DNA of 10,543 nt from a virus. Location of the stretch: UHGV virus genome UHGV-0380619, one strand, 5' to 3'. The notes beneath the pieces were generated by a model. The model had not been told where the DNA came from. It saw only the letters and a list, made by a program, of their open reading frames with translations, and searched no databases. Positions within the stretch are counted from its first letter, which is position 1; the number at the start of each line of letters is the position of its first letter. Shown piece by piece: positions 2,226 through 10,092 of the stretch. A program made the position numbers and the translations under genes.

Positions 2226-2302
2226 TGGCGCGTTGTACTGGATTCGAACCAGTGACCGATTGCTTAGAAGGCAATTGCTCTGTCCGGTTGAGCTAACAAC
2301 GC
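2226..2302 (-). tRNA. tRNA-Arg (anticodon UCU)
   Basis: Reverse complement folds as a cloverleaf: acceptor GCGTTGT/ACAACGC, anticodon stem ATTGC/GCAAT with loop CTTCTAA (anticodon TCT), T-arm ACTGG-TTCGAAT-CCAGT, 3' GCCA. Confidence 0.9.
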
Positions 2303-2315
2303 AGGGTACAGATAA

Positions 2316-2392
2316 TGGACCGCCATCGAGGACTCGAACCCCGCGCAACCAGCTTCGAAGGCTGGTGCTCTATCCTGATGAGCTAATGGCGG
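2316..2392 (-). tRNA. tRNA-Arg (anticodon UCG)
   Basis: Reverse complement: acceptor CCGCCAT/ATGGCGG, D-arm GCTC..GAGC, anticodon stem CCAGC/GCTGG with loop CTTCGAA (anticodon TCG), T-loop TTCGAGT, 3' TCCA. Confidence 0.85.
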
Positions 2393-2399
2393 TATGTGA

Positions 2400-2475
2400 T
2401 GGTGGCCCTTGCTGGATTTGAACCAGCGACCTGGCGATTATGAGTCGCTCGCTCTCACCACTGAGCTAAAGGGCC
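2400..2475 (-). tRNA. tRNA-Ile2 (anticodon CAU, lysidine type; alternatively tRNA-Met)
   Basis: Reverse complement GGCCCTTTAGCTCAGTGGTGAGAGCGAGCGACTCATAATCGCCAGGTCGCTGGTTCAAATCCAGCAAGGGCCACCA: anticodon loop CTCATAA, T-arm GCTGG-TTCAAAT-CCAGC. Closely resembles E. coli ileX as recalled. Confidence 0.85.
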
Positions 2476-2515: not shown

Positions 2516-2794
2516 TCATCCGTTCTGGCTGACTAAATCCTGTACTTCCCGAACCGTCTGCTCAAAACGTTCAGTCTCCAGCTCAACGCCAATTGCACGA
2601 CGCCCGAGCGCCAGTGCCGCTTTCACTGTCGAACCCGACCCCATGAAAAAATCTGCAATCAGGTCACCCGGACGACTGCTAGCGCTGATTATCTGCTGCA
2701 GCATTTCTGCCGGTTTTTCGCACGGATGTTTCCCGGGATAGAACTGCACCGGTTTATGCGTCCAGACATCGGTATACGGCACCTGCGCCGTCAC
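2516..2794 (-). pseudogene. Truncated N6/N4 DNA methyltransferase remnant (C-terminal portion only)
   Basis: Translation carries the C-terminal AdoMet-binding motif region (DLIADFFMGSGSTVKAALALGRRAIGVELE). No DPPY-containing N-terminal half; the reading frame closes at a stop at 2876-2878 and the first candidate start is GTG at 2794. Confidence 0.7.
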
Positions 2795-5202: not shown

Positions 5203-5592
5203 TCAGGCGGCTGCACCCGCCGTTTTCTCGTACTTACTGATAGTGATCTCGACCTTCCCTTCCGGGATAACCGGTCCCCACTCCACCAGCATTCTTTTCA
5301 CCTGGCTGTCGTCTTCCCACACACCCGCGTGGGTCAGGGCGTCAAACAGCGCCTTGTTATAGTTGTCCAGATCGCGGATCCGGTTATCCGGAGGAAACAA
5401 CACGATCTCCACTGAAGCAGGTGCCGACGTTGGTTTCGGCAGACGACGTAACTGCTCAACTATTGCTGTGCACGCCGCACTCTGGAATTTTCGCCCCGCC
5501 GCGCTTATCAGGCTCTTACCAGCAAATGCCCCTTTGTTGGGGTGTCGCCAGTAGGTGTTCACGCTGGGTGGAAAAGGCAGAATCAGCTTCAT
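5203..5592 (-). CDS. rusA: RusA-family Holliday junction resolvase
   Basis: 129-aa ORF MKLILPFPPSVNTYWRH...RDLDNYNKALFDALTHAGVWEDDSQV, matching the RusA motif pattern. The start ATG overlaps the upstream gene's stop (ATGA). Confidence 0.88.
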   Translation of the reverse strand: MKLILPFPPSVNTYWRHPNKGAFAGKSLISAAGRKFQSAACTAIVEQLRRLPKPTSAPASVEIVLFPPDNRIRDLDNYNKALFDALTHAGVWEDDSQVKRMLVEWGPVIPEGKVEITISKYEKTAGAAA

Positions 5593-5915
5593 ACTTTCAG
5601 CCCCCTCTCATGTAACCAGTGGGCTGCACGCAGCCTGGCGTTTTCCTCACCAGCAAGCAGTGCGCGGATAATCCCGGCCACCTCGCTGTCGTCGTCCTTC
5701 ACCGCGGTATGAAGCGTGATGCCCCGGGCCACGCCACGCTTTATCGTGATGACGCCTTTTTTCTCCAGTGCGCGAAGATGCTCCACCGCTGCATTCACTG
5801 AACGGTATCCCAGCATGGTAGCCACCTCCTGATTGGTTGGCGGGAAGCCACGTTCTTTCTGGTAAGAAATCAGCATATCCAGCACCTGCTGCTGGCATTG
5901 AGTTAACGTCGTCAT
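5589..5915 (-). CDS. LexA N-terminal DNA-binding-domain-like protein lacking the S24 peptidase domain
   Basis: From ATG at 5915: MTTLTQCQQQVLDMLISYQKERGFPPTNQEVATMLGYRSVNAAVEHLRALEKKGVITIKRGVARGITL, which aligns by eye with the LexA N-terminus. No Ser/Lys protease domain. Start overlaps the upstream stop (TAATG); stop overlaps the rusA start. Confidence 0.75.
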   Translation of the reverse strand: MTTLTQCQQQVLDMLISYQKERGFPPTNQEVATMLGYRSVNAAVEHLRALEKKGVITIKRGVARGITLHTAVKDDDSEVAGIIRALLAGEENARLRAAHWLHERGLKV

Positions 5916-6403
5916 TAAGCCCCCACGTAATTCCCTGACAGATACCACTCTTCACCCGATACAGCGCGCTTGCTGCTTTTCCGTAAACACCGCTCACGAC
6001 GCGCAAGAAAATTGTTTCGCTCTTGCTGGGAGTGGCTTTCACGGAATGCCGCCATCCACACCGTTGCAGCACGACGGTATAAGCCCCTGGACTCCAGTTC
6101 TTCAGCCTGACGGGTCAGGCACAAAATCACCCAGGGGTCGTTAGTGCCGACATAGAAATTGCTCACAGGTATGGTTTCAAGAACAGGTTGCAGTTTCTCC
6201 TCCTGCGATATCTCAGCCTGGTGTGGGAAATGTCTGCGTGTTTTCCCTTCACAACGGTGAGCCACACGCCCACTCTGACGTAACTTGCTTGCTGACTGCA
6301 GTACGCGCTGCCGTGAGTAACCTGCAAAAGCATCCGCAATGTCTCCGGAAGTACAGCCCGGATGGGCTTCAATGAATTTCTGAACTTCATTCAAAAGACT
6401 CAT
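5915..6403 (-). CDS. PerC-family transcriptional regulator-like protein (YfdN-like) with an N-terminal HTH-like region
   Basis: C-terminal LTRQAEELESRGLYRRAATVWMAAFRESHSQQERNNFLARRERCLRKS resembles PerC/Pch proteins. ATG at 6403 preceded by GGGGGTG; the track start at 6409 is GTG. Confidence 0.6.
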   Translation of the reverse strand: MSLLNEVQKFIEAHPGCTSGDIADAFAGYSRQRVLQSASKLRQSGRVAHRCEGKTRRHFPHQAEISQEEKLQPVLETIPVSNFYVGTNDPWVILCLTRQAEELESRGLYRRAATVWMAAFRESHSQQERNNFLARRERCLRKSSKRAVSGEEWYLSGNYVGA

Positions 6404-6405
6404 GA

Positions 6406-7347
6406 TCACCCCCTGAATCCTTCCGGGATCTGGCTGTAGTCCACGTTGTCGTAACTGGCTTTGAAGTACGGGTCCTCACGTTTTTCTGTGTGCGTGCTGA
6501 CGGACGGCGATAAGCGCAGGGAAAGCTCATCCCATTTTTCCCGCAACTTCGACGGGCTGAGCACGTTACGGCACCAGAACGGATCACGGCTGACGCGGCT
6601 GTACATCTCGCAGATTTGTTTGTGAGTACGACCATCCTGCACACACATCAGGCGAATTTCGTTTGCCCATGCTGTCCAGTTCGGTTCTTTGGGACGAACC
6701 ACCTCGCCGTCACATTCGGCGGCCTGCTCGTACAGGGCGATGATTTTTTTCCAGAGCCACTGTGCGCAGGTCAAATCATCCTGCGTTCCCCACTGGCGCT
6801 TTTTAGGGCTGAATACAACCGCATCAGGATGGCGAGTTAAAAAATCCTGTTCAGCCGTCTGCGTGTCCGGTTGCAAAGCGTCCGGACGAGAAGGTTTTTT
6901 ATCTGACGGATCATGTTTTGATTTTACTGACGGATCCCCGCCAGATTCTGACGGGTGAAAACACGCTTTTTTGCCAGATTTCGACGCATCAAATTTTGAC
7001 GGGTCAGATTTTGATGCGTCAGATTTTGACGGGTCAGAATCTGACAGTTGAGAAAATGCCGCAGCCTGAAGCTTCGCAACGTTAAGCTGATAAACATTCG
7101 ACGCATTGCGGTTACCCTGGCGACGCGCCTTACGCGTTAACCAGCCTTCTGCTTCCAGCCGTGCGATAGCCGTTCTGACGGTACTCATCCCCGCGCCAAT
7201 CTGGCGGGCAATGGTTTCAATTGATGGCCAGCACACACCCTCGTCATTACTGAAATCAGCCAGACGGGCCATAATTGCCACACTGGATAATTTCATGCCT
7301 GACGCTGCGCAACCATCCCATACATAGCCGGTTAATTTGGTGCTCAC
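6406..7347 (-). CDS. Replication initiator (lambda O-like; HTH replisome-organiser N-domain with low-complexity linker)
   Basis: GTG start at 7347 preceded by a strong SD AAGGAGGTG with an in-frame TAA immediately upstream. N-terminal HTH region (LTGYVWDGCAASGMKLSSVAIMARLADFSNDEGVCWPSIETIARQ). Central pentapeptide repeats (SDPSK/SDASK) encoded by iterons. Confidence 0.8.
   Translation of the reverse strand: MSTKLTGYVWDGCAASGMKLSSVAIMARLADFSNDEGVCWPSIETIARQIGAGMSTVRTAIARLEAEGWLTRKARRQGNRNASNVYQLNVAKLQAAAFSQLSDSDPSKSDASKSDPSKFDASKSGKKACFHPSESGGDPSVKSKHDPSDKKPSRPDALQPDTQTAEQDFLTRHPDAVVFSPKKRQWGTQDDLTCAQWLWKKIIALYEQAAECDGEVVRPKEPNWTAWANEIRLMCVQDGRTHKQICEMYSRVSRDPFWCRNVLSPSKLREKWDELSLRLSPSVSTHTEKREDPYFKASYDNVDYSQIPEGFRG
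6901..7048. repeat. Origin-like iteron array inside the O-like gene (about 8 copies, consensus AGATTTTGACGGGTC, 15-bp period in the core)
   Basis: Repeated TCTGACGG(G/A)TC-type units at about 6903, 6926, 6947, 6980, 6996, 7011, 7026 and 7041. Each unit contains a short inverted repeat (TCTGAC..GTCAGA). An AT-richer stretch follows at 6891-6930. Confidence 0.7.
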
Positions 7348-8201
7348 TTACGCACCTCCTTATGCTTTTCGTTCAGTTCCGAGTCCACCAGCCCGGCAAC
7401 GAATACACCATCGTTGATGTAGTCGTAGAGCGATGAAGCCAGCGGAGACTGAACTGAAACCAGCATCGGATAAAGTTGTTCTAACCAAACGCGGTGAATT
7501 TCAGCCATGTAGAGGTAAACAACGTGGGCATTGTGCGCGACACATGAAGTATCAACCTTTCCGATCAGCGCCTGTTCCATCTGGTTAAAGGCATTGATGT
7601 ATGCCTCTTTGAACTGGGCAGCACGTTTACCCGTGAAACCCATAGCAAGAAACGCAAAGCCATCGCGGGTTATTTGATAGCAAGGTAGTTTGCGAGTACC
7701 GCCGTTGGGCTGGCGTACCAAAATTGATGTCTCCGCAAAATTGCGGGCACAAAACTCTGGAGAACAATCCAAAATGCGAATCTTTTTCAGAACATCGTCA
7801 TGACGTTTAGAGAAGAAGTCAGCAACAGCCAAAGAAGATGTAACAGCCTGACCATCAACGATGGCAATTTCAGGTTGAGAGAGGGTTGGGAGAGTAGTCA
7901 TAGTGACAGCCCCGGTAGTCAGTTTTTTAGAAAACTCACCACATGGGACGCCAATCACAGAGGTGGTGAGACGTACAGGGTTGGCGTTACCGGAGACTAC
8001 CGAACCCGGCCCGACCGAAGTCGGCCCTGTACGCCCCACCATAATTTGGGCGTAGCAATGCTCATGACACGAAAAAACCGCATGAGCGCGGTTATGCTCA
8101 GTAATCAATTTCAGGACGCCAATCCCGGCAACGGATTTTGCCGCTGCCAGAACAATATAACGCCCAGAATTATCAGAATCAATCATTACTGGTTTGCTCA
8201 T
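7344..8201 (-). CDS. Rha-family phage regulatory protein with an unassigned ~100-aa N-terminal extension
   Basis: Rha-like core from about residue 101 (MTTLPTLSQPEIAIVDGQAVTSSLAVADFFSKRHDDVLKKIRILD...). ATG at 8201 preceded by AAGGGA; alternative internal start ATG at 7901. The N-terminal 100 aa have coding-like codon usage. Stop overlaps the O-like GTG start. Confidence 0.65.
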   Translation of the reverse strand: MSKPVMIDSDNSGRYIVLAAAKSVAGIGVLKLITEHNRAHAVFSCHEHCYAQIMVGRTGPTSVGPGSVVSGNANPVRLTTSVIGVPCGEFSKKLTTGAVTMTTLPTLSQPEIAIVDGQAVTSSLAVADFFSKRHDDVLKKIRILDCSPEFCARNFAETSILVRQPNGGTRKLPCYQITRDGFAFLAMGFTGKRAAQFKEAYINAFNQMEQALIGKVDTSCVAHNAHVVYLYMAEIHRVWLEQLYPMLVSVQSPLASSLYDYINDGVFVAGLVDSELNEKHKEVRK

Positions 8202-8210
8202 GATCGTCCC

Positions 8211-8549
8211 TTATCTCCCTGAACTTTTGCCTGAAATGCTCAAGCGGGCTGAAGCATTCATGTTCATAGCCTTCACGGAGGTAGATAACCCGTTGTGTTT
8301 CCGGCTCCCAACGAATGACTCTGACGGGCACTCCGTAGTGATCTTTGAACCAGCGGTTAACTTGTCGCAAAGGACTGTCTCCTTCTGCCGGTTGAAATCC
8401 CCCACAGCCCACTCTGCAAAGCAGTGGGTTACAATTTCCCTGTCACCTGGTACATTCACTGCATAGCAATACTCCACCTTCGCTTTTCCACCCGGTACAG
8501 GAAGCGCAATCAGTTGCGAGCGACGGTAGTGTGTTGTTAAACTGTTCAT
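8211..8549 (-). CDS. Hypothetical protein (112 aa), translationally coupled to the upstream gene
   Basis: ATG at 8549 overlaps the upstream stop (ATGA) and is preceded by GGAGAAA. It overlaps in a different frame with a second protein-like ORF at 8179-8412, so the assignment is ambiguous. Confidence 0.4.
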
Positions 8550-9187
8550 GCGTTAGTTTCTCCACAACCAGAAGCAATCGACGCCACGACGCCCGGAGCT
8601 GCACACTCGCGGGCGTTACTCTTTTCCGGCGCACAAAAAACACGAAATAACAGTGTTAAATGCTCCTGCCACTTCGCCATTACTTGGTAGCTGTTCTCTT
8701 CGATTTGCTCACGCTCAGCTTGGTCAATAACTCCATCAGCAGTTGCCTTGCGTAAGTACTGGGAATGCTTGCCAATCCATTCTATTGACTCCATCAGCCG
8801 CTGATTAATGTCACCATTGTCAATGTCATCAATGACCACCAGCGGCACAAACACCCCATTACTACGACGGGCTATTGCATCCGTTACATGCCTGGTACCA
8901 CTGGCATCCTGTAAAACCATGGCCCACTCAAGTGGAAAAATTTGATCCCCACCGCTACGCAGTCTGTTATGCAATTGATCTTTTGCTGGGGTGATATCAT
9001 CAGATTTATACAAACCAAGAATTTCTGCTGCTTCCTCATAGCCATGAGGTAAATCAGCAATCGTTCTTCGTATTGCTGCCACCAGCCATGCTGGTTGCTT
9101 ATCAACTTTCCATTCAGGTTCTTTACCCACGTTTAAGCCCTCATATCTGTGGTTTCTGTAAATCGATTTATCCATTAGATTTTTCAT
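8546..9187 (-). CDS. CII-like / YdaT-like early regulatory protein (family uncertain)
   Basis: Long ORF immediately downstream of the Cro-like gene. Start not resolved: ATG at 9187 or 9175, both with weak SD; the track start at 9244 is GTG and would overlap cro extensively. Confidence 0.5.
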
Positions 9188-9368
9188 AAAGCTCAGGTTT
9201 AAATGGCAACCGTCCGCAAGTTCTATATGCAGCCTCTGCTGCACGTCCTTTTGGAATTAACTGGCCAGGACGGTTTCGCCACTGATAAACGGCTTCAGTT
9301 GTTATGCCGAAAAAAGCAGCAACTTTCTCAATGCTGCCGAAGTAGCTTTCGATATCGTCAGTCGTCAT
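9168..9368 (-). CDS. cro: Cro-like repressor (YdaS-type HTH)
   Basis: 66-aa ORF. ATG at 9368 preceded by GGAGGG. Motif VAAFFGITTEAVYQWRNRPGQLIPKGRAAEA resembles the YdaS/Cro family. Divergent from the CI gene across an operator-rich intergenic region. Confidence 0.75.
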   Translation of the reverse strand: MTTDDIESYFGSIEKVAAFFGITTEAVYQWRNRPGQLIPKGRAAEAAYRTCGRLPFKPELYEKSNG

Positions 9369-9465: not shown

Positions 9466-10092
9466 ATGGAAACGGTTGGTCAGCGTATAAAAGCTCTGAG
9501 AAGAGTTACCAGAACGTCCCAGAAAGAATTGGGTAAATTTTGTGGAGTAAGTGACGTTGCTGTGGGGTACTGGGAGAAAGACATCAATGTCCCTGGTGGG
9601 GAAGCACTTTCAAAATTAGCGAAGTTCTTCAATACGTCAATAGATTACATTCTTTATGGTGCGGAGTTTGAAGGCAAACTCGTCACAAACATGCGCAGAG
9701 TTCCTGTAATCTCGTGGGTTCAGGCTGGGCAGTTTACTGAGTGCAGGACAGCAGAAGTGTTTAGTGAAGTAGACAAGTGGGTAGATACATCATTAAAGAT
9801 TGGTGATAACTCATTTGCATTGGAGGTTAAAGGCGACTCCATGACTAACCCTAACGGCCTCCCAACAATACCAGAAGGCGCAACAGTGATTGTAGATCCT
9901 GATGCAGAACCCCGGCATGGAAAAATAGTCATCGCTAGACTTGATGGAACAAACGAAGCCACAGTAAAAAAATTAGTTATCGATGGCCCTCAAAAGTTTT
10001 TAGTGCCATTAAATCCCCGGTACCCCAACATCCCGATCAATGGTAATTGCCTCATCATTGGTGTAGTCAAAGGAGTTCAATACGAACTCTAG
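9466..10092 (+). CDS. cI: CI-type prophage repressor (HTH-XRE N-domain plus LexA-like S24 autopeptidase C-domain)
   Basis: 208-aa ORF. N-terminal HTH (QKELGKFCGVSDVAVGYWEKD). C-terminal S24 motifs: GDSM (Ser nucleophile) and VKKL (Lys), with a QAG candidate cleavage region. Confidence 0.9.
   Translation: METVGQRIKALRRVTRTSQKELGKFCGVSDVAVGYWEKDINVPGGEALSKLAKFFNTSIDYILYGAEFEGKLVTNMRRVPVISWVQAGQFTECRTAEVFSEVDKWVDTSLKIGDNSFALEVKGDSMTNPNGLPTIPEGATVIVDPDAEPRHGKIVIARLDGTNEATVKKLVIDGPQKFLVPLNPRYPNIPINGNCLIIGVVKGVQYEL

Follow-up and report, generated by a model that had tools for sequence, protein, structure and literature searches.

A lambdoid initiator gene that very probably carries origin iterons and may recruit host DnaB-DnaC through a DnaT-type tail

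A 10,543-nucleotide stretch of viral DNA (UHGV virus genome UHGV-0380619), called the window throughout, contains at positions 6406-7347 on the minus strand the gene for a 313-residue replication initiator. Sequence comparisons lead us to propose that this protein is a modular lambdoid initiator, that its gene holds the phage origin, and that its C-terminal tail, which is of the DnaT type, recruits the DnaB-DnaC complex of the host. Taken as a whole, we consider this explanation reasonably probable. In the proposed mechanism, dimers of the N-terminal winged-helix domain would bind six palindromic iterons at 6940-7045, which also encode the initiator's own linker. Two GATC-bearing half-sites and an A-rich stretch (~6890-6936) would form the likely unwinding or regulatory zone. 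The DnaT-type tail (...IPEGFRG) would then recruit host DnaB-DnaC to the opened origin, host DnaC standing in for the P protein of lambda; for this step we put the chances at even or slightly better. We infer that the N-terminal domain binds the iterons, that the origin fires and that the physical partner of the tail is DnaC, DnaB or the complex of both. The features on which the proposal rests are as follows.

6406-7347, minus strand: replication initiator gene, 313 amino acids, GTG start, TGA stop at 6406-6408, match to phrog_391
7054-7347, minus strand: N-terminal winged-helix DNA-binding domain (residues 1-98), HTH_36, the presumed reader of the iterons
6892-7044, minus strand: disordered interdomain linker (residues 102-152), coinciding with the iterons, half-sites and A/T-rich stretch
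6514-6864, minus strand: helical C-terminal domain (residues 162-278), homologous to lambda O
6409-6480, minus strand: disordered C-terminal tail (residues 290-313, ...REDPYFKASYDNVDYSQIPEGFRG) with the DnaT-type motif [IV]-P-x-G-F-R-G
6940-7045: iteron array inside the initiator gene, six 13-bp palindromes
7033-7045, 7018-7030, 7003-7015, 6988-7000, 6973-6985 and 6940-6952: the six iterons, of which the first five are in 15-bp register
6901-6912 and 6925-6936: two half-sites GATCCGTCAG, 24 bp apart, each with a Dam site
6890-6929: the most A/T-rich 40 bp of the initiator gene, A-rich on the coding strand, at the downstream end of the array

On the coding strand the iteron unit is a 13-bp imperfect palindrome, GTCAGA-W-TCTGAC, with 2 bp between neighbouring phased units. 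A repeat search recovered six copies spaced 33, 15, 15, 15 and 15 bp and, in addition, two related copies at 6898-6912 and 6922-6936; the reverse complement of this half-site pair (6898-6936) reads GATCCGTCAG[A/T]TAAAA. An earlier note on this DNA, made from its letters alone, had counted about eight iterons with 15-bp spacing. Iterons are indeed present, although the count resolves into five at 15 bp, a sixth after 33 bp and the two half-sites. When up to three mismatches are allowed, the palindrome has 8 matches in the 10.5-kb window, compared to 2.09 expected and with 0 of 200 shuffles attaining that number; a segment of 106 bp (6940-7045) holds six of the 8. The phased units encode L-S-D-S-D, P-S-K-S-D, A-S-K-S-D, P-S-K-F-D and A-S-K-S-G, so that codon reading of these five units bears out the SDPSK/SDASK repeats of the earlier note. 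Tandem Repeats Finder reports for 6975-7038 both a period of 15 (4.3 copies, 81% match) and a higher-scoring period of 30 (2.1 copies, 88% match). The longer period scores better because the 2-3 bp between the palindromes alternate between CCG and GCA (Pro and Ala), and it hints that the iterons are perhaps used in pairs.

To characterize the repeats across species we used a comparative set of 80 loci, one genome per species. Wherever the N-terminal 95 residues are at least 70% identical, 3-9 palindrome matches are found, unchanged in position and in 15-bp phase, whatever the C-terminal domain. All 65 genes with this level of N-terminal identity (from about 60 Enterobacterales species) carry the array, and at N-terminal identities of 64% or less the palindrome matches drop to 0-1. 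An earlier codon table based on the DNA motif was partly circular, and was replaced by units defined by the peptide only (S-[KEDN]-S-[DEG]), which gave 234 units in 65 genes. The first Ser of the unit is TCA in 217/234 (93%) and the second is TCT in 205/234 (88%); the corresponding shares in the rest of these genes are 28% and 15%. Moreover, the Lys is AAA in all 123 cases (100% vs 71% elsewhere in these genes) and the Asp is GAC in 81% (vs 46%). Fisher p values for these biases range from 1e-17 to 1e-114, for units that are phylogenetically non-independent, though the genes come from many genera.

Initiators of other N-terminal classes have different repeats in the same place, some of them with a period of 21-24 bp. 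These longer repeats are read in different frames, and peptide selection therefore cannot account for them. Furthermore, the number of units varies from none to about 9 among proteins that are otherwise 90-98% identical (P0010, P0015, P0017, P0033, P0044; window positions 6973-7045), and the origins annotated in lambda (within O) and in P22 (within gene 18) lie at the corresponding place. These comparisons, which span about 65 species, point to selection at the level of the DNA and not merely for a peptide linker. We regard it as very probable that the repeats are origin iterons; the peptide period of five residues follows from the 15-bp repeat in the DNA. An origin inside the initiator gene, as the earlier note had it, is thus supported by synonymous constraint, by covariation with the N-terminal domain and by the non-triplet periods of the sister classes.

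The GATC sites of the two half-sites (6909-6912 and 6933-6936) lie between the iterons and the A-rich stretch. They are conserved at the synonymous level: Asp is GAT followed by C in 56/56 and 50/56 anchored homologues, unlike the Asp codon inside the iterons, which is GAC in 81%. The half-site element is also conserved in initiators of another iteron class (L016, L075). Since the GATC pair is strictly conserved and a Dam-family methylase gene directly follows the initiator, or the PerC-like gene behind it, in most relatives, methylation or SeqA-type control of origin firing is suggested, by analogy to oriC or P1 oriR. The adjacent A/T-richer stretch of the earlier note exists at 6890-6929 (68% AT), though weakly. 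It is a candidate unwinding region, and its polarity and position are the same as in the lambda and P22 origins. Within the origin, promoter and terminator consensus searches returned nothing notable, promoter-like sites being no commoner than in shuffled sequence.

The initiator itself is a composite. Over its full length it matches phrog_391, 'replication initiation O-like' (E 1e-134). The Pfam scan assigns its N-terminus to HTH_36 (PF13730; 42.9 bits vs a cut-off of 25, E 4e-11) and returned HTH_36, GntR and MarR, Phage_rep_O (PF04492) being absent. A blastp alignment to lambda O covers only residues 131-277, and places the C-terminal domain against lambda O residues 139-270 (36% identity over 149 residues, E 3e-25). 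Similarly, tblastn against the O genes of lambda and lambdoid phages gives 39% identity (E 9e-18), with gene 15 of phi80 also matched. The designation 'O-like' in the earlier note thus holds for the C-terminal domain, whereas the N-terminal domain is HTH_36. For the C-terminus of P22 gp18, a suspected further homologue of lambda O, a blastp comparison with the window protein gave no confirmation, and gp18 is left out of the argument. In the AlphaFold2 model the predicted local distance difference test score (pLDDT) is ~90 for the C-terminal domain and 33-48 for residues 102-152 (33-44 for the S-D-P/A-S-K segment), which predicts disorder of the linker; Pfam found no match to the pentapeptide-repeat beta-helix family PF00805. 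The last ~30 residues of the protein are also predicted to be disordered.

It is this end of the protein, VDYSQIPEGFRG, that matches the extreme C-terminus of E. coli DnaT, the motif ..D-x-[IV]-P-x-G-F-R-G being common to both. The motif is kept in 105 DnaT orthologues, and E. coli dnaT lies directly upstream of dnaC. The three-helix ssDNA-binding domain of DnaT (PF17948; ssDNA, single-stranded DNA) has no match in the initiator at E<0.01 in Pfam, and database labels that call initiator homologues 'primosomal protein I' rest on local similarity only. An alignment of homologues shows that domains are shuffled: phiNP has the same N-terminus and linker with another middle domain, and SfV differs nearly throughout, yet the window protein, phiNP and SfV all end in ..VDYS..P..GFR[GST]. 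Close homologues can have alternative tails, namely a lambda-like ..DNTDWIYGIE.. (lambda O ends in TNTDWIYGVDL), ..GGHWNSPEAWENTL or a longer ..W(N/A)xIW... We compared the class of the tail with the gene that follows in 77 genome loci:

W-rich tail (..HWNSPEAWENTL), 9 loci: followed by a PF06992 P protein in 9/9 (E 1e-51 to 1e-62)
GFR tail, 49 loci: 48 without a loader; the remaining locus, L076, has a DnaC homologue (E 1e-77 to E. coli DnaC)
W(N/A)xIW tail, 17 loci: a loader in none

The association of the W-rich tail with P was set as a prediction and then checked. P0042 and P0089 carry the lambda-like tail DNTDWIYGIE and each is followed by a P gene, which makes 11/11 overall for W-rich lambda-like tails. 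P0042, whose tail is ..DNTDWIYGIEEDLHRILSRGEH, is 75% identical to the window protein over 97% of its length. The converse survey started from loaders: on viral contigs, 79 of 80 DnaC-like genes are preceded by an ORF (open reading frame) ending in ..PD..[IV]P.GFRG. These ORFs represent six or more unrelated architectures, among them one with a true Phage_rep_O N-terminus and one with a DnaT_C-like domain. Upstream of a distinct and more distant subfamily of DnaC-like genes (L079 4663-5409; L174, L175), the initiators end in ..DIPEGFNQNLP..GGTDDDFI, that is, a DnaT-like core with an acidic-hydrophobic tip reminiscent of the SSB C-terminus. The third type of C-terminal extension is ~60 residues long, ends in ..W(N/A)xIW(K/Q)..AA (L043 5995-7017; L018 6001-7047; 15 further genome loci) and is attached to C-terminal domains of the phiNP type and of the lambda O type alike; a P, DnaC or DnaB gene comes next in 0/17.

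No gene for a helicase loader is found near the initiator. Pfam, PHROG and NCBIfam scans of the ORFs, together with tblastn searches using E. coli DnaB, E. coli DnaC and lambda P, detected no homologue of P, DnaC or DnaB in the window. Loader genes are likewise absent from the complete SfIV genome, where the Pfam scan included the hypothetical proteins, and from the complete prophages of E. coli ECSC054 and of strain 774, the latter being the closest full relative (98% identity over 88% of the window). The claim that no loader gene follows the initiator is therefore confirmed in the window and in complete relatives, and no P/DnaC-like gene turned up elsewhere in SfIV or in the prophages of ECSC054 and strain 774.

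As a rule suggested by these neighbourhoods, the last 15-25 residues, and not the globular domains, would predict the loader: the DnaT-type tail goes with DnaC and the W-rich tail with P. We infer that, where no phage loader is present, the DnaT-type tail goes with the DnaC encoded by the host. The tail is coupled to DnaC-type loaders and excluded by P-type loaders, and a loader gene is missing here, so that, judging from gene neighbourhood, the tail most plausibly couples to, and the phage most plausibly uses, host DnaB-DnaC. The earlier note had named three options for helicase recruitment. Host DnaC is now favoured among them, the role given to the C-terminal domain passes from its globular part to the last ~15-25 residues, and a loader encoded elsewhere is not favoured. 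A broader and more tentative idea, which we hold somewhat below even, is that the ~15-residue tail of DnaT and of the phage initiators is a portable adaptor that docks on the DnaC-type loader or on DnaB-DnaC. It would explain the hand-over of the helicase by DnaT, the hijacking of the host loader by loader-less phages and the swap to a W-rich tail where P is used.

Several points weigh against the explanation that the array is an origin and that the tail brings in host DnaB-DnaC. Variants without the array exist, some of them on more than 100 contigs, and the A/T-rich stretch is weak, ranking near the 95th percentile of the window and no higher. The DnaC genes of the 80 linked loci are close relatives of one another (72-83% identity). 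Fewer than 79 independent events are thus represented, and the six architectures are the better count; tail and dnaC could also be, in part, one mosaic block that travels together without any contact between the two proteins. The 17 loader-less loci with the W(N/A)xIW extension indicate that the DnaT tail is not the sole loader-free route. The tblastn probes were DnaB, DnaC and P, and an unrelated, unrecognised loader among the small unannotated ORFs is possible. Finally, a 2026 paper on the preprimosome suggests the N-terminal domain of DnaT as the recruiter and calls the mechanism unknown.

Other ways to deliver the helicase have to be considered. The tail might imitate DnaT and so link the initiator to the PriA-PriB restart primosome, or to another DnaT partner, with loading via PriA. 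The motif is common to DnaT, whose known contacts are PriA, PriB and ssDNA, and publications have not established a binding partner for the DnaT tail. However, the published contacts with PriA and PriB use the C-terminal domain and the linker of DnaT, with no terminal tail mentioned in the accessible parts of those publications. Furthermore, the tightest genomic association of the tail is with DnaC-type loader genes, across the six initiator architectures, and the tail gives way to another exactly in those loci that have a P gene, in keeping with a loader-specific adaptor. Loading via the restart primosome is thus unlikely, and PriA or PriB is a less likely partner of the tail than DnaC or DnaB. 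The PerC/YfdN-like neighbour, for its part, occupies the position of P, abuts the stop codon of the initiator and follows it in 15 genome loci, and 14 or more phages carry the two genes together as a 96%-identical cassette. It might therefore replace P as a novel adaptor or loader, an idea to which we give very little credence. Orthologous initiators are followed by no PerC-like gene in Klebsiella phage P7641 (72% identical), Citrobacter phage phiNP and most genome loci. In P7641, phiNP and ~30 genome loci, with the same iterons and tail, the gene directly after the initiator is a methylase, and across the PerC-less relatives this methylase is of the Dam type, MT-A70 or C5. Moreover, a PerC-like gene also follows initiators with other C-termini (L043), and no domains other than a winged helix and PerC are recognisable in its product. 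These orthologues without a PerC-like gene rule the protein out as a hidden loader, and it is a dispensable accessory gene. Equally improbable is that host DnaA, bound at the origin, delivers the helicase as in RK2 and pSC101, with the initiator only opening the DNA. Several iteron plasmids do load their helicase via DnaA, but DnaA-box matches (TTWTNCACA, at most 1 mismatch) are not enriched in the window (26 vs 20.5 expected); all of them are imperfect, and a single one falls inside the initiator gene.

The remaining alternative concerns the repeats themselves, which might be a slippage-prone low-complexity linker, with the origin elsewhere or with a defective prophage that depends on a loader from another prophage. 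In its favour, the repeats vary between 0 and 9 copies and are missing from some variants, the A/T-rich stretch is weak, and the window is a prophage fragment, from a species in which several lambdoid prophages per genome are frequent (the module reaches up to 6 copies). Against it, the synonymous sites of the repeats are fixed across genera, the palindrome tracks the N-terminal domain and not the peptide context, the sister classes have non-triplet repeat periods at the same place, and the lambda and P22 origins are annotated at the equivalent position. The same cassette is also found in the deposited complete genomes of the isolated phages SfIV, SfII and mEp460, and SfIV, the one read fully, has no annotated loader. 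We therefore consider this alternative quite improbable.

Compared to known systems, the locus is closest in plan to lambda O and its origin. Both have inverted-repeat iterons inside the initiator gene, between an N-terminal DNA-binding and a C-terminal domain, followed on the coding strand by an A-rich stretch. The C-terminal domains of the two are homologous (36-39% identity), and both genes are part of the early right operon, behind cro and a cII-like gene. In contrast, the N-terminus is Phage_rep_O in lambda and HTH_36 here, and the lambda origin has four sites of 18-19 bp about 20-24 bp apart, compared to six 13-bp sites, phased at a 15-bp pitch, with a weak A/T-rich region. The next gene is P in lambda and here a PerC-like gene without a PF06992 match, and the tail is ..TDWIYGVDL in lambda and ..IPEGFRG here. 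With E. coli DnaT the initiator shares the extreme C-terminal motif D-x-[IV]-P-x-G-F-R-G-COOH, and the phage ORFs that carry this tail directly upstream of DnaC-like genes mirror the dnaT-dnaC operon. Unlike DnaT, the initiator lacks both the PF17948 domain and the DnaT N-terminal domain, and would act at a sequence-specific origin instead of a restart fork. The modules of enterobacterial phages that combine an initiator with a DnaC-like gene (L076, L088-L167) also have iterons in the linker and, in some (L076, L088, L089), a lambda-O-type C-terminal domain with the tail; they encode their own DnaC paralogue, however, and the module at 6406-7347 encodes none. With its DnaT-type tail and no loader of its own, the design is best seen as a variation on the lambda O/P and initiator/DnaC modules. 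In the iteron plasmids pSC101 and R6K, the Rep proteins (RepA and pi, respectively) recruit host DnaB-DnaC directly. These plasmids resemble our locus in having a single initiator, iterons, and a helicase and loader from the host; they differ in an unrelated Rep fold, in iterons that lie outside the rep coding sequence and in origins that use DnaA boxes, which are not enriched in the window.

Phages SfII, SfIV, SfV and mEp460, the yfdO-yfdN region of CPS-53 in E. coli K-12 and the Eru6 Shiga toxin (Stx) phages have essentially the same cassette, with no substantive difference, and our locus is a further member of this already catalogued group. Publications on these loci, PMC8951638 among them, describe the genes but not the iterons, the tail or a mechanism, and the authors of the Eru typing state that nothing is known on how Eru phages replicate (PMC8951638). 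Brezellec et al. (2017) described the mixing of HTH_36, P and DnaT_C domains in DopC, with no mention of the tail. Literature searches gave nothing on the function of yfdO/yfdN and no match for the tail motif or for 'DnaT-like' phage proteins, though an earlier description may exist elsewhere. The type of locus is thus common and descriptively known, and the tail rule appears to be new to the literature.

The cassette is widespread. Over its two genes (5915-7347) it shares 99.9% identity with E. coli ECSC054, and matches occur in 3363 of 5426 complete E. coli genomes (~60%), with up to 6 copies of the module per genome. The initiator and PerC-like genes together are 96% identical to those of Shigella phages SfII and SfIV and 88% identical to those of coliphage mEp460, and also match Stx2a and Stx2c phages. 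If the tail binds DnaC or DnaB-DnaC, this would explain the replication of very common temperate phages, among them the Shigella serotype-converting phages and the toxin-converting Stx phages of type Eru6. It would also provide a concrete candidate for how DnaT recruits DnaB-DnaC, a step that recent structural papers call unknown. Should the adaptor idea be true, a swap to the W-rich lambda-type tail would turn an otherwise unchanged initiator to a P-type loader.

As a whole, the window covers the early-right and lysis region of a lambdoid E. coli prophage. Its ORFs were scanned with Pfam, PHROG and NCBIfam, which gave the following neighbouring genes.

9466-10092, plus strand: cI-like repressor gene
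9168-9368, minus strand: cro
8546-9244, minus strand: YmfL/CII-like gene
8179-8412, minus strand: DUF4222 gene
7344-8201, minus strand: Ash and Rha regulatory gene (PF09669 and PF10554), directly upstream of the initiator
5915-6409, minus strand: PerC/YfdN-like gene (winged-helix N-terminus and PerC domain), abutting or overlapping the initiator stop
5589-5948, minus strand: gene with a LexA DNA-binding domain only (PF01726, E 4e-19)
downstream of the LexA-domain gene, minus strand: RusA, KilA-N, DUF968/HNH and Q genes, in that order
2226-2475, minus strand: three tRNA genes (Arg-tct, Arg-tcg and a Met/Ile-type with a cat anticodon), between Q and the lysis genes

The Rha stop and the initiator start overlap as GTGA (7344-7347), and the PerC ATG comes 2 nt after the initiator TGA; if PerC instead starts at a GTG, stop and start overlap (6401-6409). 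This tight arrangement of stops and starts suggests translational coupling along the operon. The earlier note had called the next gene a PerC-like regulator, and rightly so: its PerC domain scores 39.1 bits for PF06069 (cut-off 22.6; E 9e-10), and the gene matches phrog_1324 (E 2e-76). In the Eru6 type of Stx phages, a Rha(/Ash) gene is followed by the gene for an HTH_36 protein on the cro side of cI (PMC8951638). The window has this layout, with Ash/Rha at 7344-8201 followed by the HTH_36 initiator. The Eru6 reference phage Stx2a_WGPS2 matches the window in pieces (86.7%), and the Eru1-3 types of Llarena 2021 have no match to the 6406-7347 locus.

Three minor observations concern the surroundings of the module. 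The LexA-domain gene at 5589-5948 is without an S24 peptidase domain, and the closest relatives have a Dam methylase in that slot. Beside the tRNA genes lies a truncated adenine methyltransferase ORF (2516-2794, minus strand, 92 residues) that comprises only the C-terminal part. In E. coli ECSC054 (L168), finally, the integrase end of the prophage is located ~8 kb from the host dnaT-dnaC operon (29776-30999; 39124-40403), which is probably a coincidence.

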